Shown in pieces: positions 8,192 to 53,449 of a DNA stretch of 64,000 nt. This stretch comes from an uncultured bacterium (lineage in GTDB: Bacteria; Babelota; Babeliae; Babelales; Babelaceae), in the NCBI GenBank assembly GCA_963695365.1, contig OY968766.1, positions 305,744 through 369,743 of the forward strand, read 5' to 3'. The notes beneath the pieces were generated by a model. The model saw only the letters and a program-made list of their open reading frames with translations. It was not told where the DNA came from and did no database searches. The position numbers were made by a program, and so were the translations under genes. Position 1 is the first letter of the stretch, and every line of letters begins with the position of its first letter.

Positions 8192-8268
<77 letters not shown>

Positions 8269-17587: not shown

Positions 17588-19087
<1,500 letters not shown>

Positions 19088-19102: not shown

Positions 19103-19345
19103 ATGGAACTACAGATTATCGGTCCTACTAGCTCACAATCACTCGACATTCACTGGATAGATGTTTCAACGGCGGATGGCAATTGTGTTATTCTTCCTGG
19201 TCATACGCCGATGATAATATTACTAGCACCCAATAAAGAGGTAACAATGGAGCGAGCGGACGGTTCAACGATGGTAATGACTGTTGCCGGGGGTTTTTTG
19301 GAAGTAACACGAACATCAATAATGCTCATTCTGACTCATGACTAA
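19103..19345 (+). CDS. atpC: F1 ATP synthase subunit epsilon, beta-sandwich domain only (80 aa)
   Basis: GNCVILPGHTPMIILLAP...VAGGFLEV matches the epsilon N-terminal domain. The ORF ends where the C-terminal helical hairpin would normally begin. Confidence 0.82.
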   Translation: MELQIIGPTSSQSLDIHWIDVSTADGNCVILPGHTPMIILLAPNKEVTMERADGSTMVMTVAGGFLEVTRTSIMLILTHD

Positions 19346-34938: not shown

Positions 34939-35520
34939 TTAACGCTTAGAAAGCCAACAGGAACTTATGTGGTCGTTAACCATGCCTATCGCTTGCATAA
35001 AAGCATACATGATCGTTGAACCTACAAACTTCATTCCTCTCTTTTTTAAGTCCGTGGACAAAGCATCGCTTTCAGCTGTATGGCTTGGAATATCCCGCAG
35101 CCTCTTGCGATGGTTAATGAGAGGCTTGCCATTCACATATGCCCACACATATTTATCAAAAGAGCCAAATTCATGCTGAATCTGCAAAAAAACTCGGGCA
35201 TTTTGGCGCGCCGCATAGATCTTTAACCTATTGCGAATTATGTCTGGGTTGTGCAGCAAGCCCTCCAGCTCTTCATCTTTCATAGCCGCCACGCGAACAG
35301 GATTGAAATGATGAAACGCTTTGCGATATCCTTCGCGCTTTTTCAGCACTGTTTCCCAACTCAGTCCAGCCTGCGCTCCTTCAAGAATCAGCATCTCCAA
35401 CAAATGCTGATCATCATGGGAAGGAACACCCCATTCTTTGTCATGATATTCCGTAAATAATTCCTTACCAGCTACACCACCAAAACAACGGATTTTTCCG
35501 TCCACACCAGGTATTGCCAT
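34939..35520 (-). CDS. tag: DNA-3-methyladenine glycosylase I
   Basis: YHDKEWGVP..DDQHLLEMLILEGAQAGLSWETVLKKREGYRKAF. 193 aa. Confidence 0.92.
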   Translation of the reverse strand: MAIPGVDGKIRCFGGVAGKELFTEYHDKEWGVPSHDDQHLLEMLILEGAQAGLSWETVLKKREGYRKAFHHFNPVRVAAMKDEELEGLLHNPDIIRNRLKIYAARQNARVFLQIQHEFGSFDKYVWAYVNGKPLINHRKRLRDIPSHTAESDALSTDLKKRGMKFVGSTIMYAFMQAIGMVNDHISSCWLSKR

Positions 35521-35858
35521 TTATATTCCTTGCTTTTCAATTCTCAAACTTTGCGCAGGACAGGTCGCCGCTTTCCAGTACAAGTCCCCTTCTTCAATAA
35601 CGTTCGCTCGCTCAGCTTCATTGATAATATCCTCTAATTGACATTTGTCGATCTTTAGTAGTAAAGCTTTGAAAATGCTGATTATGACGAGAAAATTTTA
35701 AATGATCTCAGAAATGAGCATTCAGTCGACGCTCATAGTCATGCAAGCGATAATGGGGCTTTGTGGTCGATCTTTCCAATCATTGCGGTGCGTGCATCTT
35801 TGCATTTTCGCCGGAAGCGCACCAAAAATTTCGCACTTCTCGATGAAAACTTTCAAAC

Positions 35859-36008
35859 TTGGCGATATCTCATTTATTTTACGACTTTCCGCCAAGTTTG
35901 CATCATATTTGGCGATATCTCATTTATTAATTGACTTATCGCCAAGTTTTAGATATATTTGGCGATATCTAAGGTTTTTTATCACTTATCTCCAAATTTA
36001 AAGGGAAA
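35859..36008 (+). repeat. three tandem 50-bp iterons, each with an internal inverted repeat
   Basis: Units start at 35859, 35909 and 35959 with TTGGCGATATCT. Units 1 and 2 share TTGGCGATATCTCATTTATT and contain TTGGCG(A)...(T)CGCCAA inverted arms about 25 nt apart. Unit 3 is degenerate (TCTCCAA) and runs into the SD/ATG of the next gene. Confidence 0.9.
35931..35959 (+). promoter_or_regulatory. candidate sigma70 promoter embedded in iteron unit 2
   Basis: TTGACT (35931-35936), a 17-nt spacer and TATATT (35954-35959), about 50 nt upstream of ATG 36013. Confidence 0.4.
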
Positions 36009-36012
36009 TGAA

Positions 36013-37479
36013 ATGCCCTCAATAATCGGTCGCAAAAAAGAGCTTCAGTTGTTAGAAAGGCTTTATAAATCTGATAAAGCTGAATTTCTTGCCATTTACG
36101 GAAGACGTCGAGTAGGAAAAACTTTCCTAATTAGTCAGTTTTTTAAAGAAAAAACCGTCTACTTCGAGTTGACGGGCATAAAAAATGCGACAACGAAGAA
36201 TCAGCTTAAAAATTTTAACGAAGAGCTCAGTGGAGCTTTTTTCGGCGGGCAACTACAAAATACTCCTGATAATTGGCAGGAAGCCTTCTCTATTCTGTGC
36301 AAAAGAGTTAAAAAAGCAGAACCTTCCAAAAAAGTTACGATTTTTCTTGATGAGCTCCCCTGGCTCGCTTCCCCACGTTCAGGATTTTTAGAAGCATTAG
36401 ATCATGCTTGGAACCGCTATCTCTCACGCCAACCTAATGTCGTGCTCGTTGTCTGCGGCTCAGCTGCATCATGGATGTTAAAAAAAATAGTCGACAGTCA
36501 GGGGGGATTCTATGGACGCTTAACAGCAAAAATGAAACTTGAGCCATACACGCTTGCCGAAACAGAACTTTTTTGCAAGGCAAAAGGGATAGAACTAGAA
36601 CATAAACAGATTATCGAGCTGTATATGGCCTTTGGGGGCATCCCTAAGTACCTTGAAATTATCAGCAAGGGCAAATCGCCCGTCCAAACGATACAAGAAG
36701 CATGTTTTGTACCCAATGCTCCTTTAGCCTATGAGTTTCCCCGTCTCTTTTCTTCACTCTTTGATCACGCAGAAACTCATCTCACTATCGTAAAAGCACT
36801 GGCTAAGCAAAGAAGTGGTTTAAGCCAAAGCGAACTCATTGATATAACTAAATTAAAATCAGGGGGCGGGCTCACGCGTACGTTAGAAGAGCTTGAAGCA
36901 TCTGGATTTATAACCACAGTGCCCAACTTTGAAAAAAAGAAACGAGAATCCCTGTACCGCTTAATCGATGAGTATTCCCTTTTTTATTTAACATGGATAA
37001 TGCCAAGTATCGAGGGAAGTCTCAAAGATATGCAAGAGTTTTATTGGCAACAAGCGCAGGATTCACCGCGTTATCACGCTTGGGGAGGCTATACCTTCGA
37101 AGGCATATGCTTAAAACACATCAAGGGAATCGTTTTTGGCCTAGGCATCAGCGGCATCTCGGTAAAAGCAAGCAGCTGGAAATATCGCGCCGCCAAAGAC
37201 AGCAAAGAAAACGGAACACAAATCGATCTTGTTATTGAACGAGCCGATAACTGCATTAATCTCTGCGAAATTAAATACTCTAATGCGCCATACGTTGTTA
37301 CAAAAGAGTACGCCGAAAAATTACGCTGGAAAAAAGAATGTTTTCGCACTATCACAGGCACTAGAAAAAGTCTATTTACAACGCTTATCACGCCATTTGG
37401 TGTCTTCGAGAATGCACAATATGCTGCATCTGTTGATAATCAGATAACCATGGATTCCCTATTTATCAGTTTTGGTTAA
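36013..37479 (+). CDS. AAA ATPase of the archaeal-ATPase (PF01637-like) / DUF234 type
   Basis: IGRKKELQLLERLYKSDKAEFLAIYGRRRVGKTFL (Walker A), IFLDELPW (Walker B), and a C-terminal nuclease-like/DUF234-type region. The track start 35959 is a TTG inside the iterons. ATG 36013 follows AAGGGA. Confidence 0.78.
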   Translation: MPSIIGRKKELQLLERLYKSDKAEFLAIYGRRRVGKTFLISQFFKEKTVYFELTGIKNATTKNQLKNFNEELSGAFFGGQLQNTPDNWQEAFSILCKRVKKAEPSKKVTIFLDELPWLASPRSGFLEALDHAWNRYLSRQPNVVLVVCGSAASWMLKKIVDSQGGFYGRLTAKMKLEPYTLAETELFCKAKGIELEHKQIIELYMAFGGIPKYLEIISKGKSPVQTIQEACFVPNAPLAYEFPRLFSSLFDHAETHLTIVKALAKQRSGLSQSELIDITKLKSGGGLTRTLEELEASGFITTVPNFEKKKRESLYRLIDEYSLFYLTWIMPSIEGSLKDMQEFYWQQAQDSPRYHAWGGYTFEGICLKHIKGIVFGLGISGISVKASSWKYRAAKDSKENGTQIDLVIERADNCINLCEIKYSNAPYVVTKEYAEKLRWKKECFRTITGTRKSLFTTLITPFGVFENAQYAASVDNQITMDSLFISFG

Positions 37480-37501
37480 CCTCATTCTTCCAAAACAACT
37501 A

Positions 37502-38281
37502 CTATCGCCCTTCAGCCTTTCGGATATGCCCAAAGAGCTGTGATCGAACACGTTCTGCCACCGCAGGCTTTTGATCGCTCATAAGCTCATTAAACACGCG
37601 CCAGGCCTCAAGCTTACGCAGCTTATACACGCGCACTATATGATGTGCGATGCGACTAAGAATATGATCTAATGCTTCTGGCGTGTAATAGCTATCAACA
37701 TCTTTACTCAGCAGTCTTACAAGCCCTACAATCGAACGATTTTTATCAAACGTACCATCAGTATCGATAAATGAAATTGTATTATCAATGCAATGTATGT
37801 AGTTACCAGCATAGGTACTGATATGACCAGTCTCTTCGATAAGACGGGTAAACTGCTTCATGATATCAAGGCCAAGAGGTTTGCTGTATGCAGCTTTATC
37901 GACAACTACTTCCTCACAAATGAGCGCATAATTGAGATTGTTGAGTTTTTTTGGTCGGGCCTTCAAATGATATAACTGCTTTTTCGGCGCGTGAAGAAAG
38001 GTAAGCTTATGTTTCTCGATACATTGCGCAAGTAGTTCCCGTTGCTTCAATCGATTAACATCATACTTAACGTAATAGCCCGGCAGCCAGTCTAATTTCC
38101 ATACCCCATGCTTCTTTTTAGCAGCAGTGTTATGTGCCTTTTTTATGAGCTCTGCTAATTCATCATCATGCTCATGAAGAAGGCGTGAAAGGTTTTCATC
38201 AACGCAGTGTTGGCGAATAAACGTATCGTTTAAAGAAAGCGCATGCGCACCAAATGAGCACAGGCTCGCACATAAAATCAC
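37502..38281 (-). CDS. secreted hypothetical protein, possibly an atypical kinase-like fold
   Basis: Short hydrophobic N-terminus. Weak kinase-like landmarks: YYVKY (beta3 Lys?), ALICEEV (hinge?), AGNYIHC...ISFIDTDG (catalytic loop / DFG-like?). Confidence 0.5.
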   Translation of the reverse strand: MILCASLCSFGAHALSLNDTFIRQHCVDENLSRLLHEHDDELAELIKKAHNTAAKKKHGVWKLDWLPGYYVKYDVNRLKQRELLAQCIEKHKLTFLHAPKKQLYHLKARPKKLNNLNYALICEEVVVDKAAYSKPLGLDIMKQFTRLIEETGHISTYAGNYIHCIDNTISFIDTDGTFDKNRSIVGLVRLLSKDVDSYYTPEALDHILSRIAHHIVRVYKLRKLEAWRVFNELMSDQKPAVAERVRSQLFGHIRKAEGR

Positions 38282-38456
38282 AAAATAAAAGCGCAGACTA
38301 GACTTCCCCCCAGATACATTCGTACTATAACATTAGCATACTTAGCTAACGCAATTCAACAAAAACATTACCTTATCCTCGAGATTGATTGGCATGCTAC
38401 ATAACGTTCATTATTACCGGATGTTCACACTCATCCAAATTTTACAAAAATTTTGT

Positions 38457-38485
38457 TTGTATTAAACTGTCTGTCGACAGATAAT
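38457..38485 (+). promoter_or_regulatory. candidate promoter with a 12-bp palindrome for the secretin cluster
   Basis: TTGTAT (38457-38462), a 17-nt spacer and GATAAT (38480-38485). The perfect palindrome TCTGTCGACAGA (38470-38481) overlaps the spacer and the -10. Confidence 0.3.
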
Positions 38486-38556
38486 AGTGGCGCATAGCGA
38501 TTAAGATGCCTTGCTAAAAAAGTAAGCATCCGAAGATTTCCTAAGGAAGAGATTTG

Positions 38557-39699
38557 ATGAAGAGCCCGCTCTGGATAATCACGAGTGCTTTGACGATCCT
38601 GCTTTTTGCTGTCATTGTTTCTATCATCTTCTCAGCAAAAAAAATTGTTGAAACACCACGCGCGACGCCTATAAAAGTCCCAACCAGTATAGTGCTGGAG
38701 GAAGAAAAAGAGATCAACCCAAAGGATTTCCGCATGATCTATGAAGAAAAGGATATCTTTGGAACCTATAAACCGATGGCCATACCAGAAGCGGTAACTG
38801 AAACATTGCCGGTATTGCCACCCCCTCCTTTCCCGCGACCGGTAATGCCGCGGCAGCAACCATCTTTACAATTTTTACCGCCCCTTCCAATCAAAATTAG
38901 TGGCATCATCGCATCCAATAAAGATGAGAATTCTCAGGTAAGTTTGCTCAATACCAACACAAGAAAAACAACTTCTTATAAAGTTGGTGAAATGGTTATG
39001 GATGCATACGTCTTGCGTATATTCCCACGCAAGCTCATTATTCTCCGTTCAAATGGACAACAAGAAACACTCTTTATGTATCCAGAGGACGCTCAATTAG
39101 AGTTAGAAAACCTCAAAGACGTGACCTGGACCGATGTCGTTCAACAACAAACTGCAACAAGCTTCTTGCTGAATCCGACAAGTTTTGCTGCGCGCATGGC
39201 AAGCCTGGCCGGACTAATCGATGCACTTGACGCAACACCAGCAGTAAAAGAAGGCGCAGCTATCGGCATTCGTGTTGGCAAAATGGATAGATCTTCAATT
39301 GGGTACGCACTCGGTTTCCAACCAGGTGATTTAATCACGCATGTTGCTGACATCAGCACGGACTCAACAGAAAATCGCATGAAAGCGTACAATAAAGCAG
39401 TTCAAATGAAAATGGGTTCAGTCTGTACAGTAACTTGCGTGCGTAACGGCAGACAACTTAAACTTTCATACACGTTATTTAATCTTGCAGATACGAGCAT
39501 TAAAAAGCAAACCCCTGCTCCCATAGTTGGACCGCAACAAATGGGTTCTTCACCTATGACTACGGGTCCAAGCCCCCATATGGCAGATACCAGACCATAT
39601 CAAGGCACGATGAATTCGATGCAACAAAAAGATAGAGAGGCTACGAATGTGTATGGAAGTAGACAAAGCATGGTAGCTCCACAGCAGCCTCAGCGATAG
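38557..39699 (+). CDS. GspC-like protein (TM anchor, HR/PilP-like beta domain, PDZ-like domain)
   Basis: TM segment LWIITSALTILLFAVIVSIIF and a Pro-rich linker. The HR-like pattern is IKISGIIASNKDENSQVSLLNTNTRKTTSYKVGEMVMDAYVLRIFPRKLIILRSNG. The PDZ-like segment is GIRVGKMDRSSIGYALGFQPGDLITHV. Confidence 0.6.
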   Translation: MKSPLWIITSALTILLFAVIVSIIFSAKKIVETPRATPIKVPTSIVLEEEKEINPKDFRMIYEEKDIFGTYKPMAIPEAVTETLPVLPPPPFPRPVMPRQQPSLQFLPPLPIKISGIIASNKDENSQVSLLNTNTRKTTSYKVGEMVMDAYVLRIFPRKLIILRSNGQQETLFMYPEDAQLELENLKDVTWTDVVQQQTATSFLLNPTSFAARMASLAGLIDALDATPAVKEGAAIGIRVGKMDRSSIGYALGFQPGDLITHVADISTDSTENRMKAYNKAVQMKMGSVCTVTCVRNGRQLKLSYTLFNLADTSIKKQTPAPIVGPQQMGSSPMTTGPSPHMADTRPYQGTMNSMQQKDREATNVYGSRQSMVAPQQPQR

Positions 39700-39719
39700 C
39701 CAATAGGACAATATAAGAT

Positions 39720-42700
39720 ATGAAAAAACTGTTCGGCTTTTTACTCATTATGATCGGCGCACTGAGCACCATACCAATGCTCAGGGCAGAAGATCCTTCC
39801 GAAGAAATTCAGGTCACGGAATTTCCTGTCGGCGAGCCTAGGAGCACTCCTCAGGGAAAACCCCCTTTTAAGCTTGTACCGATCGATCCCGATGAAAGTA
39901 CAGAAGGCGGGACTCCCATACCTCGAACTACAGCTCCGGCACAACCAACACGAGCGCCACAAGTTACAATTATACAACCTGAGGCACGCACTCCTTCTGT
40001 AGCAGCTCAAGTAGCTGCGAAACAAGGAGCCCAAACCCCTGAAACCCCATCAAGGCCTGTCAATCAGACAGTACCTCCAACCGCAACCCCCGTATCACCA
40101 AAGCCCGCAGATCAGCCAGTTCCACCAGCTACAACTGCACCTTTGGCTCAGCCAGTTGCGGCACCAGCAAAGCCAACTATAGCTTCTCCTATTGCATCCG
40201 TAGCCGAAACACCAACAGCACCTGTGCAAAAGGTAATACCTGTAGCGGTACCTCAAGCAGCCGCAGCAACTCAAAAGGAACAACTAGTCGCACCAACTGC
40301 GCCAAAGGCAGCTGCTCCCCAGAGACAACCGACCCCTCCCGCTCAAGCAGCGCAACCAGCGACACCTATGAGCCCAGGAGCCCCTCAAGTACCGGCACCG
40401 GCTCAGCAAGCCGCCGCTCCCATCGGTGCGAAACCAGTAGTTCAGGCAAAACCTACGGCTCCGAAAGCCCAGGCTCCTGCTACACCAGCTTTAGTAAGCA
40501 CCAAAGGGGCAGAAAAAAAGAACAATATCAAGCAAGTGCCAATGAGACAAGAAAAGGGTATTCGTAGATTGCGCGATCGCCGCAAAATAAAAGCTGCTAT
40601 GAGCATGGCAGAAGAGCCTCGCACGAAAGAAGAGGCTCAAGAGCAAGAAAGAGCGATCGATGTGGGACAAGAGACCCAAAAAGACAAAGCAGCCGAAACA
40701 GCTGAGAATTTTGAAACGTTAGCGCAGACTGGTGGCATCTATCTTGGAAAATATCTCGAACCTTGGAAAGGATTTGATCCAAATGAGCGGGTCGAAATGA
40801 ACTTTGATAACAAAGAGCTCACCGAGCTTTTGAAATTTCTTTCCAATACGTTCGATATTACCTTTATCCTCGATGATGCTATAGAGCCAATGCGCGCTGA
40901 AGGTCTCCAACCGATGGCCGGCACGAAAATTACCTTCAAATCAGAAGTGCCTCTTACTCTCAAGCAAGCATGGGAGATCGGACTCACGTTTATTGAGATG
41001 GCGGGATTCTCCGTCATACCTAGTACCCTGCCACGCACCTATCGGGTAACGGTCAGCGCATCGCGAGATAAGCCATCAGCAAATCGTGAACCATTACCAA
41101 CATTTATAGGTACCGATCCGGAGCTTATTCCAAATAACGACACAAAAATTAGATACGTCTATTTTGCTGACAATGCAGAACTTTCTACAATTGTTCAGAT
41201 AATAGAGGCGATGAAATCGGGATCTGCTGGACCAATTATTGAGGTTCCGACATTGCGTGCAATTATTATGACCGATAAGGCTGCAAATATTCGATCACTT
41301 ATATCAATATTACAAGAGATCGATAAAGTCTCCCTTCCAGAAACTTTGGCAATTATCAGACTCCGCCATACTGATGCGCGCCAAGTGAGAGAGCTTTACT
41401 ATAAGCTGATAGGCAAAGATCCTCAAAGTCCGGCTTTTAATCCGTTTGCGCGCCAACGAAAACCGAGTACGACGCAATATTTCACTGAAGCAACGAGAGT
41501 ATTTGAAGAACCGTACACTAACTCGCTCATCGTATTAGGTACAAGAGATAATATTAAGCGGTTTGAAGATTTTATTTTAAAATATGTGGATAAAACACTC
41601 GATATCCCTTTCTCGCCACTCCATGTTATTCAACTCAAATATATGGATGCCGCTTCCATCGCAAAAATCCTCAATGAGATTATTCAAAAGTTTAACGCAG
41701 ATCCTTCAAATACCGCAGCAGCGCTCGTCGGCGGTGTACGTGATACCAATAAGTTTTTCCGCCCGACCGTCCGCATCACAGAAGAAACGTCAGGCAATAG
41801 GCTTATTATTAATGCAGATTATGATGAGTACCTGAAAATTAGAGAGCTCATCGAAAAACTTGACGTGGAACAGCCACAAGTAGCTATCAAAGTACTTATT
41901 CTTGACGTTGATTTAACCGACACCAAACAGATCGGTGTCCAGTTGCGTAATAAAGTAGACTGCTGCGATGGCACCGGCGGCACCAGCAGCATTCTTAGCC
42001 CTAATGTTAATTTCCAAACCGGGAACCTCGGCGCCATACAAACGCTTCAGCCGGCAACAGGCGGCCCGCCCATCAATGGCGCGGAAAGGCTTCTTGGTAA
42101 TCTCATCGCTCTCGCAGATCAGGTAAGCGGGGTATCTCCATTTGCAGCGGGAACAACACTCGTCACGCTTGGAAAAGATCTCTTTGGCTTCTGGGGACTT
42201 CTTGCAGCTCTCGAGATGTATACGCGGGTGAGTATTGTTGCAAATCCATTTTTAACGGTAACAAATAAGTATAAGGCTGAATTCAAGGTCGGTGAAACCC
42301 AACGTACAACATCTGCGATTGTTGAGGGTCAGCGTGAAGCGCAGGCTCAAGCAGATCTTTCTGCAGATCTTCGTGTTATCGTTACGCCTCAAATAAGTTT
42401 TGACGACATGATAACACTCAACGTATATGTTGAACTTGGTACCTTCATTGGTACAACGCAAAATCGTTTAATAAAGCGCGTAAGCACCGAAGCGCTCCTT
42501 GCAAATAGAGAAGTTCTTGCATTAGGCGGACTCATTCAGGATACCATTACTGAAAATATAACCAAGGTCCCCTTCCTTGGAGATATCCCGCTCTTGGGAT
42601 GGTTCTTCAAAAATAAAACAAAATCGGTTGAACGAAGCAGTTTGCTTATTCTCATCTGCCCGGAAATTATAAAACCTCATCAGCCAGAGGTAGCTCAAAA

Positions 42701-43004
42701 TTTCACGTATTCAAAAATCGCTGATGCCAAAGAAAATCTCTACAGCATGCGCGGTTATGCAGAACGACGAGATCCAATTCATCGCTGGTTCTTCGCTGAC
42801 CATAAAGATAAAGAAGCAAGTACCATAGATAGATTCGTCACGACTCAGGCGCGATATATCGATGAAAGTCAACGAAAACCGGAGATTGTTGCTCAACGGC
42901 CACCAACGAAAGAAAAAAATAAAACAACGAAAACAGAAAAGCCACAAGTGCCTGGTAAAAAGGGGCTGCTTGATCTTATTGAGCAAGCTGGAGAGCGTGC
43001 ATGA
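39720..43004 (+). CDS. secretin paralog 1 (GspD/PilQ family) with a long Pro/Ala/Thr/Gln-rich N-terminal extension
   Basis: Signal peptide, about 230 aa of low complexity, N-domains (IIRLRHTDARQVRELYYKL, VIQLKYMDAASIAKILNEI), and the secretin C-domain LALGGLIQDTITENITKVPFLGDIPLLGWFFKNKTK...LLILICPEII. Confidence 0.87.
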   Translation: MKKLFGFLLIMIGALSTIPMLRAEDPSEEIQVTEFPVGEPRSTPQGKPPFKLVPIDPDESTEGGTPIPRTTAPAQPTRAPQVTIIQPEARTPSVAAQVAAKQGAQTPETPSRPVNQTVPPTATPVSPKPADQPVPPATTAPLAQPVAAPAKPTIASPIASVAETPTAPVQKVIPVAVPQAAAATQKEQLVAPTAPKAAAPQRQPTPPAQAAQPATPMSPGAPQVPAPAQQAAAPIGAKPVVQAKPTAPKAQAPATPALVSTKGAEKKNNIKQVPMRQEKGIRRLRDRRKIKAAMSMAEEPRTKEEAQEQERAIDVGQETQKDKAAETAENFETLAQTGGIYLGKYLEPWKGFDPNERVEMNFDNKELTELLKFLSNTFDITFILDDAIEPMRAEGLQPMAGTKITFKSEVPLTLKQAWEIGLTFIEMAGFSVIPSTLPRTYRVTVSASRDKPSANREPLPTFIGTDPELIPNNDTKIRYVYFADNAELSTIVQIIEAMKSGSAGPIIEVPTLRAIIMTDKAANIRSLISILQEIDKVSLPETLAIIRLRHTDARQVRELYYKLIGKDPQSPAFNPFARQRKPSTTQYFTEATRVFEEPYTNSLIVLGTRDNIKRFEDFILKYVDKTLDIPFSPLHVIQLKYMDAASIAKILNEIIQKFNADPSNTAAALVGGVRDTNKFFRPTVRITEETSGNRLIINADYDEYLKIRELIEKLDVEQPQVAIKVLILDVDLTDTKQIGVQLRNKVDCCDGTGGTSSILSPNVNFQTGNLGAIQTLQPATGGPPINGAERLLGNLIALADQVSGVSPFAAGTTLVTLGKDLFGFWGLLAALEMYTRVSIVANPFLTVTNKYKAEFKVGETQRTTSAIVEGQREAQAQADLSADLRVIVTPQISFDDMITLNVYVELGTFIGTTQNRLIKRVSTEALLANREVLALGGLIQDTITENITKVPFLGDIPLLGWFFKNKTKSVERSSLLILICPEIIKPHQPEVAQNFTYSKIADAKENLYSMRGYAERRDPIHRWFFADHKDKEASTIDRFVTTQARYIDESQRKPEIVAQRPPTKEKNKTTKTEKPQVPGKKGLLDLIEQAGERA

Positions 43005-44554
43005 TTACCAACCTATTTATTCCTGAAGCAATAGGCTCTTACTACCTTCTACGTACGCGACGGGCGGGAATCGAGATAGCGCCAGATGCACTGCGTGTAA
43101 CGGTCATCCGCGCCCACGGAACAAAAAGAACCATAGAGGCTGTGCTTGAAGAACCTCTCCCAAAAGAGGGCGTTACTGATGAGGCAATAAGTAAAGCACT
43201 ACGTGAACTCAGCACAAAATGGGGAGCCGTCCAGGAAATTAGCTGCGTACTTCCAAGTTCGCTCGTTATTTTTAAAGAACTCAGCCTTCCTTTTATCGGA
43301 ATGAAAAAAGCGCAGCAGGTCGTTCCCTTTGAAATCGAAGCCCAGCTGCCATTTCCACTCGATGCGGCTGTCATAGATAGCATCGCTACAAAAGAAGATA
43401 TTGTTGCAAAAACGACCCATCTCCTTGTTGCGGCGGTCCAAAAGCAGACCGTTGCAAGATATATTGCTTACTTTCAGGCAGCGGACCTCACGCTCAGCAG
43501 ACTTACAGTCGATATGATTGAACTTTATAAACTCTATGAACTCTGTGCAAAACCATCCACTGACGCAATTGTCGCGCTCATCGATATTCAACCATATTCC
43601 ACGCAACTTGCAGTCAGCGTAGATCAACGCCTGGCTCATTTGAGAGCTTTACCACGCGGGCTATTCACCGGGCTTCAGACCGACCAAGCTTCAGTGCACA
43701 CCCTTGAAGAAGCTTTAGGAAGCGAAGGATCTTCCAGCATGAAACAGAACTTTACTGCTCTCCTCTCAGATATTCAATTTACCCTCGATGCCTATCGAGC
43801 CAGAGCAGATGCACAGGTACATATTGTCATAATGGGCGGCGCAGCAGAAAGCGACGCGATTATCTCATATATTAACCAGACGCTTACCACCGAGTGCTCC
43901 CGCTTTCAGCCGCAACAGATACGCGAGCAGCCGATGATACAAGAAAGCAATGGCATAACCCTTACGCAACAATATATGGTTAGTCTTGCAGCTGCACTTA
44001 AGCTCACGAAGATGAATTTTAATCAGGAATATGAAGCTGCACTTGAAAATCGCCTTTTATATCGGCAGCTCATGGTTCTTGCAGCACTGTGCGGATTGAT
44101 ACTCGTATCATGCTCACTCTACAGCCTTTTGCGAGTACGCGCACTCAAAAAAGCCTACCAAGCAGCTCAAGCAGAAGCGATTGCGGATCTTCAAAAGAGC
44201 TTTAAGCTTAAACCGACACAAACGGTCAATCTCGCTGCAGCAAATAAAGCTGCCTCAACGGAACTAAACCGTCAAGAATCAGCCTGGAATCATCTGTCTC
44301 AGGAAAATAGATATGCGCTTCTTACCAACCTCACCGCGCTGAGCTCATGCCTCAATGCGAAGGAAAGCCAGTTGGATCTCACCAGCGTCGTTATGAAAGA
44401 TGACACAATAAAGCTGTATGGCTCAGTTCCAGGATATCCACAGCTTACAAAACTGCAAAAACAGCTCGATTGCCCGCCGTTTAAAAAGCTGCCAAAACTC
44501 CAAGATTGGAATTTTAAAACTGAGCCAATAACCCTTATTGTTGAGCACAGCTAA
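43001..44554 (+). CDS. GspL-like or PilM-PilN fusion protein (cytoplasmic actin-like domain, TM, periplasmic domain)
   Basis: The N-terminus AGIEIAPDALRVTVIRA...VLPSSLVIFKELSLPF is PilM/GspL-like. One TM segment (LMVLAALCGLILVSCSLYSLL) at about residue 355, followed by a periplasmic tail of about 140 aa. ATGA overlap with secretin 1. Confidence 0.6.
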   Translation: MITNLFIPEAIGSYYLLRTRRAGIEIAPDALRVTVIRAHGTKRTIEAVLEEPLPKEGVTDEAISKALRELSTKWGAVQEISCVLPSSLVIFKELSLPFIGMKKAQQVVPFEIEAQLPFPLDAAVIDSIATKEDIVAKTTHLLVAAVQKQTVARYIAYFQAADLTLSRLTVDMIELYKLYELCAKPSTDAIVALIDIQPYSTQLAVSVDQRLAHLRALPRGLFTGLQTDQASVHTLEEALGSEGSSSMKQNFTALLSDIQFTLDAYRARADAQVHIVIMGGAAESDAIISYINQTLTTECSRFQPQQIREQPMIQESNGITLTQQYMVSLAAALKLTKMNFNQEYEAALENRLLYRQLMVLAALCGLILVSCSLYSLLRVRALKKAYQAAQAEAIADLQKSFKLKPTQTVNLAAANKAASTELNRQESAWNHLSQENRYALLTNLTALSSCLNAKESQLDLTSVVMKDDTIKLYGSVPGYPQLTKLQKQLDCPPFKKLPKLQDWNFKTEPITLIVEHS

Positions 44555-44569
44555 GCAAGAAAGTAACGT

Positions 44570-45127
44570 ATGGAATTTATAGACAGACTCAGAATAAGAA
44601 TTCAAAACCTCGAAGAACGAGAGCTCTCTCTTTATAGTGGTGCGTTTTTTCTTGGCATGCTCGCCCTTTTGGGTCTTCTTTTCTTTTGGCATTCACGAAG
44701 AGTAGGATACTATGCGAGAGAATTAAAAAACCTCGAGACGCAGCGTGCGGAAACAAAAAGACTATTAAGCAATTATAAGATAGCAAAAGCTCACAGTCAA
44801 AAAGTGGAAGAAATATTGACACAAAATAAGGACTTTCGTATCGGAGAGGCATTTCAAGACATTCTTCAGCGGACCGGATTGATCAGTCGATTACAAGCCC
44901 CAGTAAGTGCACCAACAGAGGGAGAGACACTCAGCGGCAAAACAGAGTTTCAAATAAGTGCTCAACTTGCCCGACTCTCTATGAAAAATATTACCGATCT
45001 TCTGCTTGCGATTGCTGCGGTGCCACAGCTGTACACGAAAGAAGTAACCCTTAAAAAAGAAAGTAGTTCGCCGCTTGTTGATCTTGATATAACAATTGCT
45101 ACACTAGAACTGAGTGCAACTGAATAG
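44570..45127 (+). CDS. GspM/PilO-like bitopic membrane protein
   Basis: 185 aa. One TM segment (GAFFLGMLALLGLLFFW), a coiled-coil segment and a small C-terminal domain. The call rests mainly on position between the GspL-like gene and the secretins. Confidence 0.45.
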   Translation: MEFIDRLRIRIQNLEERELSLYSGAFFLGMLALLGLLFFWHSRRVGYYARELKNLETQRAETKRLLSNYKIAKAHSQKVEEILTQNKDFRIGEAFQDILQRTGLISRLQAPVSAPTEGETLSGKTEFQISAQLARLSMKNITDLLLAIAAVPQLYTKEVTLKKESSSPLVDLDITIATLELSATE

Positions 45128-45135
45128 GAGCCTCC

Positions 45136-47535
45136 ATGAATTCCAAGATACCGGTACTATTTCTGATTCTTTTTCTTGCAGGCGATCTCCTTGCTGCACC
45201 AGTGCAGCGTGGAGACGATATCTTAGAACAACGAGCCGCTAAAAAAAGGAAACCAGAAGAACATATCCCTTTCTCATTTGAAAAGAAAAGTCTCGTTGAT
45301 ATTATCGAACAGGTCGCTTCTCTTAAGAAAATCAATGTCATCCTTCCCCAGCAAGCCGTCGATCTTGAGGCACTCAAAAAGCAGACGGTGAGCTATCAAC
45401 CACAAGGAAGAGAGACCGTATCGCTTGATACAGCATGGAATTTACTGTATACCTTTTTGGAATTGTCAGGATTCGCTATCAGCAAGCGGAAGGATGATCT
45501 CTACGTAGTCACGAGAGTAGGTCGACCTGACGAGCCAGGCATTAATCGCGAAGTTCTTCCGCTCTATATTAATACGCCACCCAATAAACTGCCCGATAGC
45601 GAAGAGCGAATCAGATATATGTACTATCTTCGTAATTTAACAGCACCGACAGCTCAAGATAAGGATACAAACCCTATTGCTCGCATTTTTAGAGATATGC
45701 TTTCACCGGGTGCGCCCGTTATTTTTGAAGCGAAAGCGAATGGATTTATCATTACTGATAAGTCAAATATTATCGCATCGGTTATGACCATTATTAAAGA
45801 ACTTGATAACAGCGGCTTTAAGGAAACGATCGAGGTGATTGAGCTGCACAATGTGCCTGCAAGGGATGTGGTGAAAGTGTTTGATTCCTTAAAAAAGGCA
45901 TCCGGCGACGTTAACCAGCCGCCCTTTATCCGAGGCGAAGAACATGGTGAATCACTCAGCTATTTCGCCGCGGACACAAAAATCATCGCTGATGATCGCA
46001 ACAACACACTCATACTCATGGGACGTGAAACTGCTGTAGAACGGATTGCAGATTTTGTTGAGCAGTACATGGATAACCCTCCAGAAACTGGTAAATCAAT
46101 TCTTCACTATTACGATCTTCAGTATCTTGATGCAAAACTCTTTGCCGATGTATTAACACGGATTGTCACGCCGCCCGTTCAGGCTGGGTTTCAGGGGCAA
46201 GCCGGCCCTCCCGTTGGACCAGAGAGATACTTCCAGGGGACAGTTGTCATGGCAGAGGAGGTAAAGACTGTTGAAACAAAAAGCACAACTGAGGAAATTA
46301 CGCTCGAAGCAAAGGGCGGCTATCTTCCAGTCGGGCTTGGTAATCAACAAATTATAACTGGCGGAAATCGGCTCATCGTTGCAGCCATTCATGATGATTG
46401 GGTCCGGTTAAGGGATTTTATCGAAGCGCTCGATAAGCCTCAGCCACAGGTGATTCTCGAAGTAATGATTGTAGATGTCACTCGAACAAGACAAAAGATT
46501 GTTTCAGGAACCTTCCGCACAAAAACGGACGCTCAGCTTCCTGATGGAGTTCAATTTCTCTCCTCTAATATATCAAACGTGAATAGCGTACTTGGAATCA
46601 ACCCTTCAGCGATCAATGTCGATTTGCTTGCGCTGCTCAGCGGCACACTACAGCAGGCAAACAACCCCCCGGTAACGTCTCTTTTGACACCCGGCTCAAC
46701 CATTATTTCATGGAATGATCCTCTAACACCAGGAATTTTCGGTCTTTTACAGCTTCTTGATTCAATTGTTGATAGCAAAGTCTTATCTCACCCATTTCTT
46801 GTTACCACCAATAACCAAAAGGCTACAATCGCATCACAAACGATTCAGCGTGTACAGGGAGACGCGGTTCCAGGAGCAGCAGGGGTTATTACCATTGAAA
46901 TCGTCGATCTTCCTGCAACACTTCAAGTACAAATGATCCCGCGAATTAGCTCTCCTACGCGACTACAGCTACAAATAGCAGTTGATGTTAACATGTTTAT
47001 TAATCCAACAAGTCAAACTCGAACAACGAGGCGAGTTAACACAAATGCCAATATGTCGAGTGGAGAAATACTCGTTATTGGTGGACTCACTCAAACAACT
47101 GAAACTGACGTCATAACCGGGACACCATTTCTTTCACGTATACCGCTGATCGGCAACTTCTTTAGCGGCAAGAATAAAATCTACGAGAAAACTAATATAG
47201 CCATTTTTATATCTCCCACCATTGTACAACCAAAGCTGAGGGGCGGTATGAATGTCTATACTGCAGATAAGATTCGCAGGGTGAGGCGAGATGTTAGTGA
47301 AGAAGCAGCGTTTAGCGATACGCGCGATCCAGTGACACGAATATTTTTCAATATTGATGGCAAAACAGATAAACTGATGAGAGATTATCTTTCGGAGGTG
47401 GATAATCCACCTGATGCTGAAATTATAAACAAAATGTATGCTCGACGCCAAGCAGCACGACGAGCACGCCAACCAAAACCAAAGCAGGAAGTAATTAAGC
47501 CAACAGCGGGGCCGGTAAAACCAGTGCCGGCATGA
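45136..47535 (+). CDS. secretin paralog 2
   Basis: Signal peptide, N0-like SLDTAWNLLYTFLELSGFAI, N-domains (VIELHNVPARDVVKVFDSLKK, YYDLQYLDAKLFADVLTRIV), and the secretin domain LVIGGLTQTTETDVITGTPFLSRIPLIGNFFSGKNK...IAIFISPTIV. TAGGAG precedes the ATG. Confidence 0.87.
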   Translation: MNSKIPVLFLILFLAGDLLAAPVQRGDDILEQRAAKKRKPEEHIPFSFEKKSLVDIIEQVASLKKINVILPQQAVDLEALKKQTVSYQPQGRETVSLDTAWNLLYTFLELSGFAISKRKDDLYVVTRVGRPDEPGINREVLPLYINTPPNKLPDSEERIRYMYYLRNLTAPTAQDKDTNPIARIFRDMLSPGAPVIFEAKANGFIITDKSNIIASVMTIIKELDNSGFKETIEVIELHNVPARDVVKVFDSLKKASGDVNQPPFIRGEEHGESLSYFAADTKIIADDRNNTLILMGRETAVERIADFVEQYMDNPPETGKSILHYYDLQYLDAKLFADVLTRIVTPPVQAGFQGQAGPPVGPERYFQGTVVMAEEVKTVETKSTTEEITLEAKGGYLPVGLGNQQIITGGNRLIVAAIHDDWVRLRDFIEALDKPQPQVILEVMIVDVTRTRQKIVSGTFRTKTDAQLPDGVQFLSSNISNVNSVLGINPSAINVDLLALLSGTLQQANNPPVTSLLTPGSTIISWNDPLTPGIFGLLQLLDSIVDSKVLSHPFLVTTNNQKATIASQTIQRVQGDAVPGAAGVITIEIVDLPATLQVQMIPRISSPTRLQLQIAVDVNMFINPTSQTRTTRRVNTNANMSSGEILVIGGLTQTTETDVITGTPFLSRIPLIGNFFSGKNKIYEKTNIAIFISPTIVQPKLRGGMNVYTADKIRRVRRDVSEEAAFSDTRDPVTRIFFNIDGKTDKLMRDYLSEVDNPPDAEIINKMYARRQAARRARQPKPKQEVIKPTAGPVKPVPA

Positions 47536-47539
47536 TGAT

Positions 47540-50026
47540 ATGAACATAAAAAAAGAGTATATAAAGCAAGCGATTCTCGTTCTCGCATGGATTGGCATGA
47601 CAGAAGTCATCCCCGCCATCCCGCTGATGGTGCCATTCTTGTTAAACAGAGCTTCGCTCTATGATACCGCGCAAGATCTAGCTAAAGACAGAGACATTCT
47701 CCTCATCCCACCTCAAGGCGCGGCTGACCTTGAAGCACTCAAGGCACAGCGAGTAAGCTATACGCCATCGATCGGGGATAGGATCCCATTACCGCAGGCA
47801 TGGGAACTTACCAAAACATTTTTGGAGATGTCAGGCTTTAGTCTCGTTCAAAAAAATGAGCGTACCTTTGCTATCGTGCGTGAGAGCTCAATCGAAGGAG
47901 GAGCTGCTCATAGAGACATTTTGCCTCTCTATATAGATCCAAGGCCCGAGGATCTGCCTCGTAGTGATAGCCGCGTGAGAGCACTCATCTATCTTCGAAA
48001 TATAAAAGTGCCAACGCTTGCAGAAAAAGAGCGCCATCCATTGACGAACCTGATAAAAGAACTCGGATCAAAATATGTGAACTTTATATTTGAGCCTCGC
48101 TCTAACGGGATTCTTATAACTGACTTAGCACCTCATGCAGCATCCATTATTCATATTATAGATGCCTTCGATAAGCGAGGAGGCGCTCAGGAGATCGCCT
48201 ACATTCCTTTGGCTTACGTAAAGGCAACCGATATTGCAAATATTTTTGATTCTTTAAAAAAAGCCTCTGCCCCTGCTGAAGGTGCAGGGCAAGTTGAAAG
48301 TTCCGCAGCCCCTTTTGGCAGTGATACGACTGTTATAGCCGATACGATGCGTAATGGGATTATTCTCATGGGATATAGCGACCATCTCGAAAAAATAACT
48401 GATTTTATTACAGAATCGCTCGATGTTCCTCAGGAAAACGGTAAATCGATCCTCCACTCGTATGATCTTGAGTATCTGGATGCTGCAACATTTGCACCCG
48501 CACTCCAAAAAATTGTCGGCTCACTCCTTGTAAGCGGTCAGGCCACCCAGGCACCGGTAAGGAGGGGACAGGAACACTTCTTTAAAGGCGTACAAGTGGT
48601 AGCGGAAGGTTCGGTTGAAATAAAAATAAAACAGGACCCTGAGTGGCCAGTATACGATCAAAAGGGATATCCTGAGGCTGTAGGTATAGAGGGAGCTACA
48701 TTTCGTGGCAGTAACCGCATTATTGTCGCAGCCCGCCAGGACGATTGGCGCATAATTGAACAGTTTATTAAAAAGATCGATAAGCCGAATTTACAGGTTA
48801 TTCTCGAAATTATGATCGTCAATTTTGCATATGATCATACCACAACGCTTGCCACCACAGTGAGAAGCAAAACGGATAGCGCCATACTTTCCCCAGGCGT
48901 GCAGTTTCTTTCATCGCAAATATCTTCCGTTAATTCGGTTCTGGGCAACACACCTACGCAACTGGCAGAAGATCTCTTGCAAATGGTCGGGCCCGGAAGC
49001 CTCACAACAACCCTGAGCCCCGGCCCACTCATTATCTCGCTCAATGACCCAACAACACCCGGCATTTTTGGACTTATTCAAATTCTGGAAACCATTATGA
49101 AAACGCAAATATTTTCATATCCATATCTTATGATCTCAAATAATCAAAAGGGCACGGTGGAGTCTGAAGAAATCCGCAGACCTATGGGTGATTTAGTAAC
49201 GACCCAAAATGGCACCTACACGATTCCAGTGATCGATTTGCCGGCCGCCACGAGGATCACAGCCGTTCCCCATATTGTTTCTCCAGAACGAGTACGACTT
49301 GACATCGGATTTACCATGGATACCTTCGTTGGCACATCGTTTACGCGACTCACACAAAGCCTTAATACAACAGCCACGCTTGCATCGGGACAGATACTTG
49401 TCATGGGAGGGCTCGCTCGTATAGATCGTAATGATACAATAACACAAACTCCTTTCCTTGGGAGCATTCCGATTTTAGGAGCATTTTTTCGAGGGAGAAC
49501 AGAAGAAACAACGCGCACCAATTTAATAATATTTGTCTCGCCGACCATCATACGACCCCGCCATAAAAATGAATTAGCAACGGACAAAACACGAGATCTG
49601 GTTTGTCGCGTACAAGAAGGCAACATCATTCCACTAGAAAGTGATAGGGATCCGGTCTTTCGTCTTTTTTTAAAATCGCCCCCAGATTCAACCTTTAATA
49701 CGTATTTCCCAGAATCGGACAATCTACCAGAGTTACGAGATACTACCTGTATAGTGCTACCAGAGCAAAAGATTCATGATCTGAAAAATACTCGCAGATC
49801 AGCCTCACAACGGAGTGATTTTTTTAATCCATTTGGGCAGGTGCCACCATCCGGCCAAGGGGTCACTCAGCGCGTCCTGCCAGATTTTCCAAAACTCTTT
49901 CTTGCTTCAACCCGCGAGATTATCAATAAAAATGCGGCAATTCCCTCGTGGGCCAAGCCGCAAAAATCGATCGACCGTCTTAAAGAACTTCTTGCTACGT
50001 GCGATAAGCCATTTATTCGAGTATAA
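47540..50026 (+). CDS. secretin paralog 3
   Basis: N0-like PLPQAWELTKTFLEMSGFSL, N-domains (YIPLAYVKATDIANIFDSLKK, SYDLEYLDAATFAPALQKIV), and the secretin domain LVMGGLARIDRNDTITQTPFLGSIPILGAFFRGRTE...LIIFVSPTII. Starts 4 nt after paralog 2. Confidence 0.87.
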   Translation: MNIKKEYIKQAILVLAWIGMTEVIPAIPLMVPFLLNRASLYDTAQDLAKDRDILLIPPQGAADLEALKAQRVSYTPSIGDRIPLPQAWELTKTFLEMSGFSLVQKNERTFAIVRESSIEGGAAHRDILPLYIDPRPEDLPRSDSRVRALIYLRNIKVPTLAEKERHPLTNLIKELGSKYVNFIFEPRSNGILITDLAPHAASIIHIIDAFDKRGGAQEIAYIPLAYVKATDIANIFDSLKKASAPAEGAGQVESSAAPFGSDTTVIADTMRNGIILMGYSDHLEKITDFITESLDVPQENGKSILHSYDLEYLDAATFAPALQKIVGSLLVSGQATQAPVRRGQEHFFKGVQVVAEGSVEIKIKQDPEWPVYDQKGYPEAVGIEGATFRGSNRIIVAARQDDWRIIEQFIKKIDKPNLQVILEIMIVNFAYDHTTTLATTVRSKTDSAILSPGVQFLSSQISSVNSVLGNTPTQLAEDLLQMVGPGSLTTTLSPGPLIISLNDPTTPGIFGLIQILETIMKTQIFSYPYLMISNNQKGTVESEEIRRPMGDLVTTQNGTYTIPVIDLPAATRITAVPHIVSPERVRLDIGFTMDTFVGTSFTRLTQSLNTTATLASGQILVMGGLARIDRNDTITQTPFLGSIPILGAFFRGRTEETTRTNLIIFVSPTIIRPRHKNELATDKTRDLVCRVQEGNIIPLESDRDPVFRLFLKSPPDSTFNTYFPESDNLPELRDTTCIVLPEQKIHDLKNTRRSASQRSDFFNPFGQVPPSGQGVTQRVLPDFPKLFLASTREIINKNAAIPSWAKPQKSIDRLKELLATCDKPFIRV

Positions 50027-50101
50027 GACGCTTGCTATTGCATTAAAACAAAGCAATCATGAGCAGCTCTACGTAAGTTCTTTAAAAACGTTTTTGGCTA
50101 A

Positions 50102-51538
50102 CTAAAGAACAAGTTTTGCTGCGAGAATACCTAATGGTACCTTTATTGCTTCATGACGATCAGGAGCTATACCATTGTTGCTCAAGTCAACCCTTTCCAA
50201 TGCTGGCCGGTTTTTATTCATCAGCTCTCTTATTTTTTGGATTGAAAGATCACCGCTTATCGCATTCCCCGGCATCAAAAGGAGTTTAAGAAAAGCTGCT
50301 TTGTTGATTAACGCATCAAAAAACTTATGTAGCAATTCCTTATCAGTGTCTGGATCATCGTTATCCTTGACGTGCATTTGAGAAAGATCTATTTCTTGAA
50401 GATGGTCTTGCTCAAGCAATCCCCTAGGAAATGTACAAAGCATTTTTAAAATGCATGTTTTTAAAGTATCAGAAGCTGTTGAGCGCTCACAACTAGCCAC
50501 CACTTTATTGCTTACCTGATCGTACGTATAAGTAACAGTCCCGTGAGTCAATGTACCTCGTATAGATTTACGAAATGCGGTAAGCCCATAGCCTAAGGAC
50601 CCTTTTGCATAACAGCGCAATGCTGCGCCATCAAAACCAAAATAGAGTGGATAGTATTGAGATCCAGCTTCTTCTAGTAACAAATCATCTATCCGTTTTA
50701 CAATCACCCCATTTGGATGAAGAAAATCAGGATTCACCCCCGAACTTAAAATAGCGCCTCGCACCTGTAATAGGTGCAACCATACATCATCATTACTACC
50801 GTGGGTAGCCGCGCCATGATGACCTGCATGCAGCATACATCCATAATTCAGAAGATTGTGTTCGGGTGGTAAGTGTGCTGGTATATAGTCAGTTGTCGCT
50901 TTCTCAGCATCCCCCATAATTGCCATTTTCATCTGCCCATCTTGAACAAAAACAACTAAACTTGATTTATTCTTATCGGCTTCAACTGCACCTTGCAAGG
51001 CTGGCCCTATCCAATAATTAATCGGCCCATTATTACATATCTCTGTCACCGCATGTTTATCACCTAGCAACGTTACGAAATTAATGGGACTCGGACTCCC
51101 ATCATCCGGTTCTATGTTATTTAGAAACGATTGGAACCCCCTTGCGATATACAAATCTCTGGCGCTTCCAAGGAACATTTTTGAGACATAGATTCCGTTA
51201 TCTAATTTTGTACAAGCAGCTATGATTTTTGGCAACCATCGATAATGATCAACATCGGCATGACTCGCAACGAGTGTTATTTCTTTCTTATTTATAAGCT
51301 TAAGATAAGCATTAATCTTTTCACTGATACGTTTGATCTGCTCCTCTTTGAATTTAGCAGATCTAAACTTCTTGTAAGCTGTTGATCCTGCATCTACCAG
51401 AAGAGGAGGAACCTTTAAAGCATAATTGTGACAGAGAATGAGAGTGCAATTACCTTGTCCAACGTCATAACAGATTATCTCCAGTTGAGCTAAAGCTAAA
51501 CTTGGGTATAATAGCAAGAGCAACATTTTGAGAATCAT
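50102..51538 (-). CDS. secreted ComEC-type metallo-beta-lactamase-fold protein with C-terminal LRR-like region
   Basis: Start trimmed to ATG 51538 (AAGGAG 7 nt upstream, inside the end of the upstream gene). Signal peptide MILKMLLLLLYPSLALA. YDVGQGNCTLI...LLVDAGS...LVASHADVDHYRWL...HAGHHGA is the ComEC-like MBL pattern. The C-terminus LERVDLSNNGIAPDRHEAI is LRR-like. Confidence 0.72.
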   Translation of the reverse strand: MILKMLLLLLYPSLALAQLEIICYDVGQGNCTLILCHNYALKVPPLLVDAGSTAYKKFRSAKFKEEQIKRISEKINAYLKLINKKEITLVASHADVDHYRWLPKIIAACTKLDNGIYVSKMFLGSARDLYIARGFQSFLNNIEPDDGSPSPINFVTLLGDKHAVTEICNNGPINYWIGPALQGAVEADKNKSSLVVFVQDGQMKMAIMGDAEKATTDYIPAHLPPEHNLLNYGCMLHAGHHGAATHGSNDDVWLHLLQVRGAILSSGVNPDFLHPNGVIVKRIDDLLLEEAGSQYYPLYFGFDGAALRCYAKGSLGYGLTAFRKSIRGTLTHGTVTYTYDQVSNKVVASCERSTASDTLKTCILKMLCTFPRGLLEQDHLQEIDLSQMHVKDNDDPDTDKELLHKFFDALINKAAFLKLLLMPGNAISGDLSIQKIRELMNKNRPALERVDLSNNGIAPDRHEAIKVPLGILAAKLVL

Positions 51539-51542
51539 TGAC

Positions 51543-53339: not shown

Positions 53340-53449
53340 AGCTACTCCTTGCATTCTCATGTATAATGTCACGCCTGGATTTGGCATTAGAATAGCAATA
53401 TTTCGTTTTCAGCACAAATTGTAAAGAAGTAGAATAATTGTAGAATAAT

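Follow-up and report, generated by a model that had tools for sequence, protein, structure and literature searches.

Secretins are regarded as homo-oligomeric channels, with one gene per machine. Michel et al. are said to have found in 2007 that an orphan GspC/GspD pair of P. aeruginosa, XphA/XqhA, is able to stand in for XcpP/XcpQ in the Xcp system. The present analysis concerns a stretch of 64,000 nucleotides (nt) from an uncultured Babelaceae bacterium (Babelota), hereafter the window (GCA_963695365.1, contig OY968766.1, 305,744-369,743, forward strand), in which three secretin genes, here called D1, D2 and D3, lie in one six-gene cluster with genes for GspC-, GspL- and GspM-like proteins (C, L and M) of the type found in type II secretion systems (T2SS). 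The genome is one of the Candidatus Dependentiae (TM6), which are intracellular parasites. The order C-D1-L-M-D2 recurs throughout the Dependentiae, and this phylum-wide two-secretin module is the unit of interest.

T2SS and type IV pilus (T4P) components are among the core genes of TM6 (PMC4776705, PMC4378268), and in Babela the T2SS is the sole secretion system reported (PMC4378268). Yeoh et al., 2016 (PMC4776705) described two gspD copies in all TM6 genomes and the absence of pilQ, and proposed that one of the copies may replace PilQ. Deeg et al., 2019 (PMC6561590) mention proteins of type IV pilus assembly that possibly use “a derived pulD channel.” The three secretin paralogs of M. xanthus belong to different machines and loci (PMC12475490). 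In Deinococcus radiodurans the GspD secretin complex is described as having two further subunits, a belt (DR_1364) and a cap (DR_0940) (PMC10828601). That TM6 has more than one gspD is already on record, as a remark at the level of annotation. The first-pass annotation of the window did not recognize the layout from known operons; it is partly described already, because Yeoh et al., 2016 (PMC4776705) published the two gspD copies per TM6 genome, but the operon type itself was found without description. Literature searches for multi-secretin operons or hetero-oligomeric secretins turned up none, and we found no published account of the C-D-L-M-D(-D) layout, of its presence throughout the phylum, of the great age of the paralogs or of their recurrent duplication.

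The cluster occupies 38554-50026 on the + strand of the window and consists of six genes:

38554..39699, + strand: GspC-like inner-membrane protein, 381 amino acids (aa); transmembrane (TM) helix 8-26, HR-like region, PDZ domain

39720..43004, + strand: secretin D1, 1094 aa, in the canonical gspD place after gspC; signal peptide, extension, N0-N3 domains, secretin barrel, C-terminal helices, RDPIHRWFF

43001..44554, + strand: GspL-like protein, 517 aa; cytoplasmic actin-like PilM/GspL domain, TM 359-377, periplasmic C-terminal domain

44570..45127, + strand: GspM-like bitopic protein, 185 aa; TM helix 21-39

45136..47535, + strand: secretin D2, 799 aa, the phylum-wide downstream lineage; signal peptide, N0-N3 domains, secretin barrel, C-terminal RDPVTRIFF

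47540..50026, + strand: secretin D3, 828 aa, tandem duplicate of D2; N0-N3 domains, secretin barrel, C-terminal helices, RDPVFRLFL

The intergenic spacing is, in order, 20, -4 (an ATGA overlap at 43001-43004), 15, 8 and 4 nt, and the coordinates of the open reading frames (ORFs) bear out the six tightly packed genes on one strand that the first-pass annotation had pointed to. The ATG at 38557, where that annotation let the cluster begin, does exist, but the gspC ORF opens one codon earlier with TTG at 38554. When 38000-50400 was scanned for promoter and terminator consensus sequences, the counts were close to those expected from shuffled sequence and no site was informative; judged by their spacing the six genes are probably co-transcribed. 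Expression data for Babela have been reported by Pagnier 2015.

For the survey of synteny an alignment of the L protein was scanned against one genome per GTDB species, which gave 80 loci, and all of these were then surveyed by ORFs and phmmer. The order C-D1-L-M-D2 is found in essentially every Dependentiae locus, ~63 of them non-redundant, and because the same order recurs in ~63 related genomes the arrangement is far beyond chance. A downstream secretin is present in every locus which reaches past M, the only loci without it being those cut off by contig ends. D2 always follows directly after gspM and is found nowhere else among the ~63 genomes. Over 50 intact loci the median gaps are 10.5, -4, -1 and 8 nt, the last being that between gspM and D2, and the gap between D2 and D3 is 11 nt.

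Around this invariant core the number of secretins varies. A third secretin is restricted to the subclade nearest the window (Babela, L007-L015 and L043). The six genes of Babela have the same order as those of the window, with products of 374, 1097, 543, 185, 820 and 783 aa, and are followed by a convergent enolase gene. More distant Dependentiae loci have the order MoxR-C-D-L-M-D with two secretins. Four secretins are found in one metagenome-assembled genome (MAG), Candidatus Babeliales MAG_BO39 (L046; JARLHJ010000034.1, 5696-16811), in the order C-D1a-D1b-L-M-D2a-D2b, and all four are complete by Pfam. In another genome (L008, MFD02579.bin.2.17, 14656-16620) D3 is split into three ORFs of 157, 444 and 102 aa, the other five genes being intact; the breaks may be pseudogenization or frameshift errors in the MAG. 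Since the third copy is a clade-specific tandem duplicate, “three secretins” is a variation on two. The first-pass annotation thus stands as far as three real GspD-type secretins in an unusual layout are concerned, but the key unit is the two-secretin C-D1-L-M-D2 and not the set of three.

The relationship of the copies was analyzed with a neighbor-joining tree of 138 full-length secretins, outgroup secretins included (632 trimmed columns, Kimura distances, 100 bootstraps). The D1 and D2 lineages separate: the upstream (D1) clade takes in 58/61 with a bootstrap of 95, the downstream (D2) clade 66/69 with a bootstrap of 100, and the bootstrap of the outgroup is 100. In three deep-branching genomes (L053, L057 and L062), which have two secretins each, the copies group weakly together. 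D1 and D2 are, by this tree, ancient paralog clades, and they appear non-redundant because both lineages are kept in every genome examined. The downstream copies of the three-secretin genomes form one clade (bootstrap 97), inside which the D3 copies of eight genomes, that of the window included, are monophyletic (bootstrap 91), which points to a single duplication of D2. In Babela and L009 the two downstream copies pair within the genome (bootstraps 76 and 57), which would reflect either separate duplications or gene conversion. L046 has duplicated both lineages independently and recently, with a bootstrap of 100 for each.

Within the window the identity is 32% between D1 and D2, 30% between D1 and D3, and 42% between D2 and D3. 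Compared with seven to nine related genomes the orthologs of D1 are 60-72% identical, those of D2 61-67% and those of D3 45-51%, with 41-52% for C, L and M, and this conservation argues for function in all three secretins. The most conserved part of D1 is the N0-N3 domains (77-84%). In D3 the barrel is best conserved (55-57%), and the N0-N2 domains and the C-terminus least (34-45%). The barrels of D2 and D3 are 44-52% identical, those of D1 and D2 28-38%.

The C-terminal secretin motif which had been noted in all three translations is present in each, and so is the Pfam Secretin domain (E = 4e-33 for D1, 2.8e-27 for D2 and 2.5e-26 for D3) together with Secretin_N; D1 additionally matches the Pfam N0 domain, and D1, D2 and D3 all have signal-like N-termini. 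The top NCBIfam model for all three is TIGR02517 GspD (240, 214 and 201 bits for D1, D2 and D3), which outscores the PilQ, SctC, MshL and HofQ models. These scores are below the equivalog cutoff, as are all NCBIfam equivalog scores in the cluster; the match of D2 spans model positions 2-591. When the PDB was searched by sequence with D1, D2 and D3, the top matches of each were cryo-EM chains of T2SS GspD, and PilQ, pIV, InvG and RcpA came after them.

The AlphaFold2 model of D3 (from an alignment of 84 sequences) has a mean predicted local distance difference test score (pLDDT) of 78.9 and resolves N0, N1, N2, N3, a double-walled barrel and C-terminal helices. The model of the D1 core (86 sequences, pLDDT 74.8) has the same architecture, with low confidence only in the first barrel insert. 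The best Foldseek match of both models is PulD (6hcg; E = 2.5e-31 for D3 and 1.1e-31 for D1), followed by other GspD structures and then by T3SS and T4P secretins. On these matches and models D1, D2 and D3 are all full-length GspD-type secretins. The idea that just one of the three is a genuine secretin is excluded by Pfam for all three and by AlphaFold2 and Foldseek for D1 and D3. N0-N3 domains and a secretin barrel, which mark the GspD of a T2SS, are thus found three times in the window, against the usual, although not strictly defining, one secretin per machine or locus.

D1 differs from the others by an extension before N0 of ~300-330 aa (residues ~28-330, window 39720-40760), which is of low complexity and rich in Ala, Pro, Gln and Thr (A 19%, P 18%). 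The length of D1 orthologs ranges from ~790 to 1250 aa, and one of them (P0197) has Big_9/cadherin-like domains where D1 has its extension. A C-terminal motif RDPxxRxF[FL] (RDP[IV]x[R]x[F][FL]) is common to D1, D2 and D3 and lies ~30-45 residues past the barrel, at residue 1017 in D1, 730 in D2 and 703 in D3 (window ~42768, 47323 and 49646). Roughly two thirds of the Dependentiae secretins have it, in either lineage, and 0/8 of the outgroup secretins; it could be a common site for a pilotin or other partner, or a site between subunits. For a comparison of single residues, 28 alignment columns with a conservation of 90% or more over D1-type and outgroup secretins were used. D2 retains 25 of these and D3 retains 24. 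Three conserved glycines are changed in both D2 and D3: G671 of D1 is P in both, G739 is S in D2 and A in D3, and G858, which belongs to the secretin domain's canonical “VGE” stretch, is Q in D2 and E in D3. These replacements may alter gating or flexibility.

The identities of the three other proteins, which had been called GspC-, GspL/PilMN- and GspM/PilO-like from the sequence, are backed by hidden Markov model (HMM) matches, topology and profile comparison. The GspC-like protein matches NCBIfam GspC_delta (E = 1.8e-16 over 246/311 model positions) and TIGR01713 (E = 2e-9), both below cutoff, and its Pfam matches to T2SSC and PDZ/PDZ_6 are weak; the orthologs of L003, L005 and L006 have clear PF11356 T2SSC matches. 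The GspL-like protein matches Pfam PilM_2 (3e-14, 53 bits) and T2SSL (2.9e-7, 30.6 bits vs. a cutoff of 25.5). Its homologs come from Candidatus Dependentiae (TM6), Babela massiliensis among them. The GspM-like protein of 185 aa has no match in Pfam or NCBIfam. A phmmer search from the GspM of Archangium reaches it at 1.2e-4, and its orthologs down to 8e-9, and hhalign of 66 Dependentiae M proteins vs. 13 outgroup GspM gives 98.9% probability (E = 1.6e-17). The topologies of the C, L and M proteins, which like the TM helices were taken from Kyte-Doolittle scans, agree with the expectation for GspC, GspL and GspM. The cluster thus has a GspC beside gspD, a GspL with actin-like domain, TM and periplasmic part, and a bitopic GspM, as expected of a T2SS. 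With its secretins it makes up the outer-membrane and alignment part of a T2SS-type machine.

Outside the Dependentiae the scan with the L protein found loci in Myxococcota and Nitrospirota only, where the distance from the secretin to L is ~7-8 kb. In Archangium gephyra (L074) this space is taken up by GspE, GspF, GspG, more pseudopilins and GspK, and GspL and GspM come next. The Archangium GspL has the same Pfam pattern as the L protein of the window (PilM_2 above T2SSL) and matches Dependentiae L proteins at up to 1.6e-24. The L and M of the outgroup sit in canonical gspD-E-F-G-I-J-K-L-M operons. For E, F, G, I, J and K of Archangium no homolog was found within ±10 kb in ~66 Dependentiae loci, nor in the window. 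The window also lacks T2SSE, T2SSF, Peptidase_A24 and N_methyl/pilin domains among its ORFs of at least 150 aa, which agrees with the earlier observation that no ATPase, platform or pilin gene is present in cis, and no prepilin motif was found in any reading frame of the 64 kb. Since L and M have their closest relatives beyond the phylum in canonical gsp operons, we infer that the cluster is a T2SS-derived module from which the E-K block has gone and which has acquired a second secretin downstream of gspM.

The model which we tentatively prefer, and to which we give somewhat less than an even chance, proposes separate homo-oligomeric pores that share one GspC/L/M scaffold. An ancestral operon gspC-D-E-F-G-…-K-L-M, of the kind still found in Myxococcota and Nitrospirota, would have lost the E-K block from cis, and after an ancient duplication of the secretin the second copy would have been fixed downstream of gspM. 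D1, D2 and D3 would each form their own GspD-type pore, D3 being a later, sub-functionalized copy of D2, and the pores would dock through their N0-N3 domains on the single shared scaffold. Labor might be split between classes of cargo, or between protein secretion and the extrusion of fibers. The motor, the platform and the pseudopilins would, from what the literature says, be encoded elsewhere in the genome, and the likely cargo would be a large set of Sec-signal-bearing eukaryote-like effectors. Separate pores are favored because the barrels of D1 and D2 are too diverged, because each secretin has a full docking module, because D1 is most conserved in its N-domains, and because conserved glycines are changed in the D2 lineage.

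Several points weigh against this model. The structure models are of monomers and do not tell separate pores from mixed rings, and co-transcription of the cluster is deduced from gene spacing. One tight operon and a shared RDPxxRxFF motif fit co-assembly at least as well as separate pores. That motor, platform and pilins lie elsewhere is taken from the literature on other TM6 genomes (PMC4776705, PMC4378268, PMC6561590). According to Yeoh et al., 2016, citing Pagnier 2015, no pili were seen on Babela (PMC4776705), and a split with one pore for pili is weakened by this.

A second model, which is possible although we consider it unlikely, is a mixed or coaxially layered channel on one GspC/L/M scaffold, assembled from D1 together with subunits of the D2 family, to which D3 belongs in this clade, and/or from D2 with D3. 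The outer-membrane channel of the machine would then obligately consist of several kinds of subunit. It would explain that D1 and D2 are universally retained together, tightly and probably translationally coupled in one operon, and that the C-terminal RDPxxRxFF is common to all paralogs and missing in outgroups. The identities within D3, 55-57% in the barrel vs. 34-45% in the periplasmic and C-terminal parts, with 44-52% between the D2 and D3 barrels, are as expected if contacts between barrels are the main constraint, and the parallel duplication of both lineages in L046 points the same way. Literature searches turned up no natural hetero-oligomeric secretin, however; the barrels of D1 and D2 share merely 28-38% identity, and every domain needed by a stand-alone GspD is kept in each paralog. 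If the mixed multi-paralog channel is true, no hetero-oligomeric secretin would have been found in nature before it, and tandem duplication, which has happened repeatedly, would serve to tune the pore in different lineages.

A third model lets D2 and D3 act apart from the T2SS filament machine, as stand-alone channels through which, for example, DNA, polymers or small molecules are taken up or released, or as a substitute for PilQ in a separate type IV pilus, their place in the cluster being due only to shared regulation or history; we find it distinctly improbable. The PilQ variant is the proposal of Yeoh et al., 2016 that one gspD copy may replace the missing pilQ (PMC4776705). Secretins can pass non-protein polymers, as in the nozzles of M. 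xanthus and cyanobacteria (PMC12475490), and the loss of three conserved glycines hints at changed gating. This is at variance with the invariable position of D2 directly after gspM (median gap 8 nt, ~63 genomes), with the GspD-type N0-N3 module of D2, which lacks the AMIN domains of PilQ, with its best scores, which are those against models and structures of GspD, and with the lack of reported pili on Babela (PMC4776705). A word-limited homolog search, moreover, detected a single PilM/GspL-type protein in the genome of the window.

That D1 alone is functional and D2 and D3 are redundant, decaying relics is highly improbable: D3 does evolve faster than D1 and D2, and the D3 gene of L008 is broken into three ORFs, but those breaks may be MAG assembly errors, no complete locus in this phylum, whose genomes are strongly reduced, has a broken D2, the orthologs of D2 are better conserved than C, L and M (by which the idea is largely refuted for D2), D2 and D3 hold 25 and 24 of the 28 family-invariant residues, and the model of D3 is confident and full-length.

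The flanks of the cluster are housekeeping genes (ClpB, TIM, MlaE/F and enolase). In 51 of 58 Dependentiae loci a gene for a MoxR-type AAA+ ATPase lies immediately upstream of gspC on the same strand. There is no MoxR gene anywhere in the 64-kb window; its usual place (34939-38281) is taken by a 3-methyladenine glycosylase (-), an ATPase_2 “archaeal ATPase” of 506 aa (+) and an unannotated ORF of 259 aa (-). MoxR may be a functional partner, e.g., an assembly chaperone, or merely syntenic. A recent acquisition of the cluster by a mobile element was rejected on its GC content (~0.44-0.47 vs. ~0.40-0.47 elsewhere in the window) and on the phylum-wide synteny with the TIM/MlaEF/enolase neighborhood.

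Between D3 and enolase two overlapping genes (50102-53387, -) are found where relatives have nothing. One codes for a protein of 485 aa with a region like the C-terminal part of ComEC/Rec2 (TIGR00361, E = 3e-13, no Pfam match), the other for a protein of 614 aa with a SocA/Panacea antitoxin domain, and the pair looks like a toxin-antitoxin or defense-type insertion. Elsewhere in the window an AbiEi antitoxin and an AbiEii nucleotidyltransferase toxin are encoded by overlapping genes (15135-16720, +). A HerA-type helicase (19338-20939, +; DUF87, with weak NCBIfam matches to HerA and CedD) adjoins the gene for the β subunit of F1 ATP synthase (17630-19087). The sole tRNA from a scan at the Rfam gathering threshold is a tRNA-Met (8192-8265); ARAGORN gives in addition a tRNA-Leu(GAG) of 91 nt (103-193, +), which is not in that scan.

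Throughout a phylum of intracellular parasites with reduced genomes, two secretin lineages are invariably kept around gspL-gspM, and some members have duplicated them again. Because a genome of 1.1-1.7 Mb would not carry genes of 2.4 kb which are not needed, it is very likely that the Dependentiae machine needs more than one kind of pore subunit, which is undescribed for any studied secretion system. Many eukaryote-like effectors with Sec signals, ankyrin and WD40 proteins among them, probably leave the cell through this module, since published genome analyses report the T2SS as the only dedicated secretion system. The window itself codes for a eukaryote-like WD40 β-propeller protein (2541-3584, -) and an ankyrin-repeat protein (3825-4550, +), both with signal-peptide-like N-termini, which are plausible substrates of the machine. 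Babela, Vermiphilus and Chromulinavorax are cultivable in their hosts, and purifying and imaging secretin multimers presents little difficulty; whether the pores are separate or the rings mixed, the answer would add to our knowledge of how T2SS are built and have evolved. In Chromulinavorax 44% of the coding sequences, and 78% of the ankyrin proteins, have signal peptides (PMC6561590).

Among the known systems the type IVa pilus locus PilM-N-O-P-Q resembles the cluster by its actin-like PilM-type domain, its bitopic PilN/O-like partners and its secretin, and databases label the L protein “PilM.” It differs in that the PilM-like domain of the window forms one protein with a TM and a periplasmic domain, in the manner of GspL, and that a GspC with PDZ is present. 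A PilMNOPQ pilus locus was rejected on this fusion, on the lack of AMIN and PilP matches in the cluster, and on the PilQ models and structures, which score below GspD. The genes of Yeoh et al., 2016 (PMC4776705) are the same as those described here, and so is the idea that the copies serve different filament systems. Their study is without the operon layout, the paralog phylogeny, the third and fourth copies, the link to GspC/L/M and the comparison with canonical operons, and left the question open. The D. radiodurans complex (PMC10828601) is likewise an outer-membrane secretin complex made from more than one gene product, but its belt and cap surround a main GspD and are not presented as secretin paralogs.

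The canonical T2SS operon (gspC-D-E-F-G-H-I-J-K-L-M), of the Myxococcota/Nitrospirota type seen in Archangium (L074), is like the Dependentiae clusters in its GspC with PDZ, its GspD with N0-N3 domains, barrel and C-terminal helices, its GspL with PilM_2/T2SSL signature and a single TM, and its GspM of ~185 aa, and the best HMM, sequence and fold matches of the cluster are all to T2SS. The Dependentiae clusters differ from it by the E-K block missing in cis and by secretins of two lineages on either side of L-M, to which some clades add a third or fourth copy; D1 of the window in addition carries the long low-complexity extension at its N-terminus. The XphA/XqhA pair of P. aeruginosa reportedly gives one inner-membrane T2SS platform several secretins, that is, alternative outer-membrane gates, as may be the case here. 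There the second secretin is said to have its own GspC, a separate locus and conditional expression, and to be dispensable, whereas the Dependentiae have one GspC, all secretins in one operon, and both lineages universally kept.

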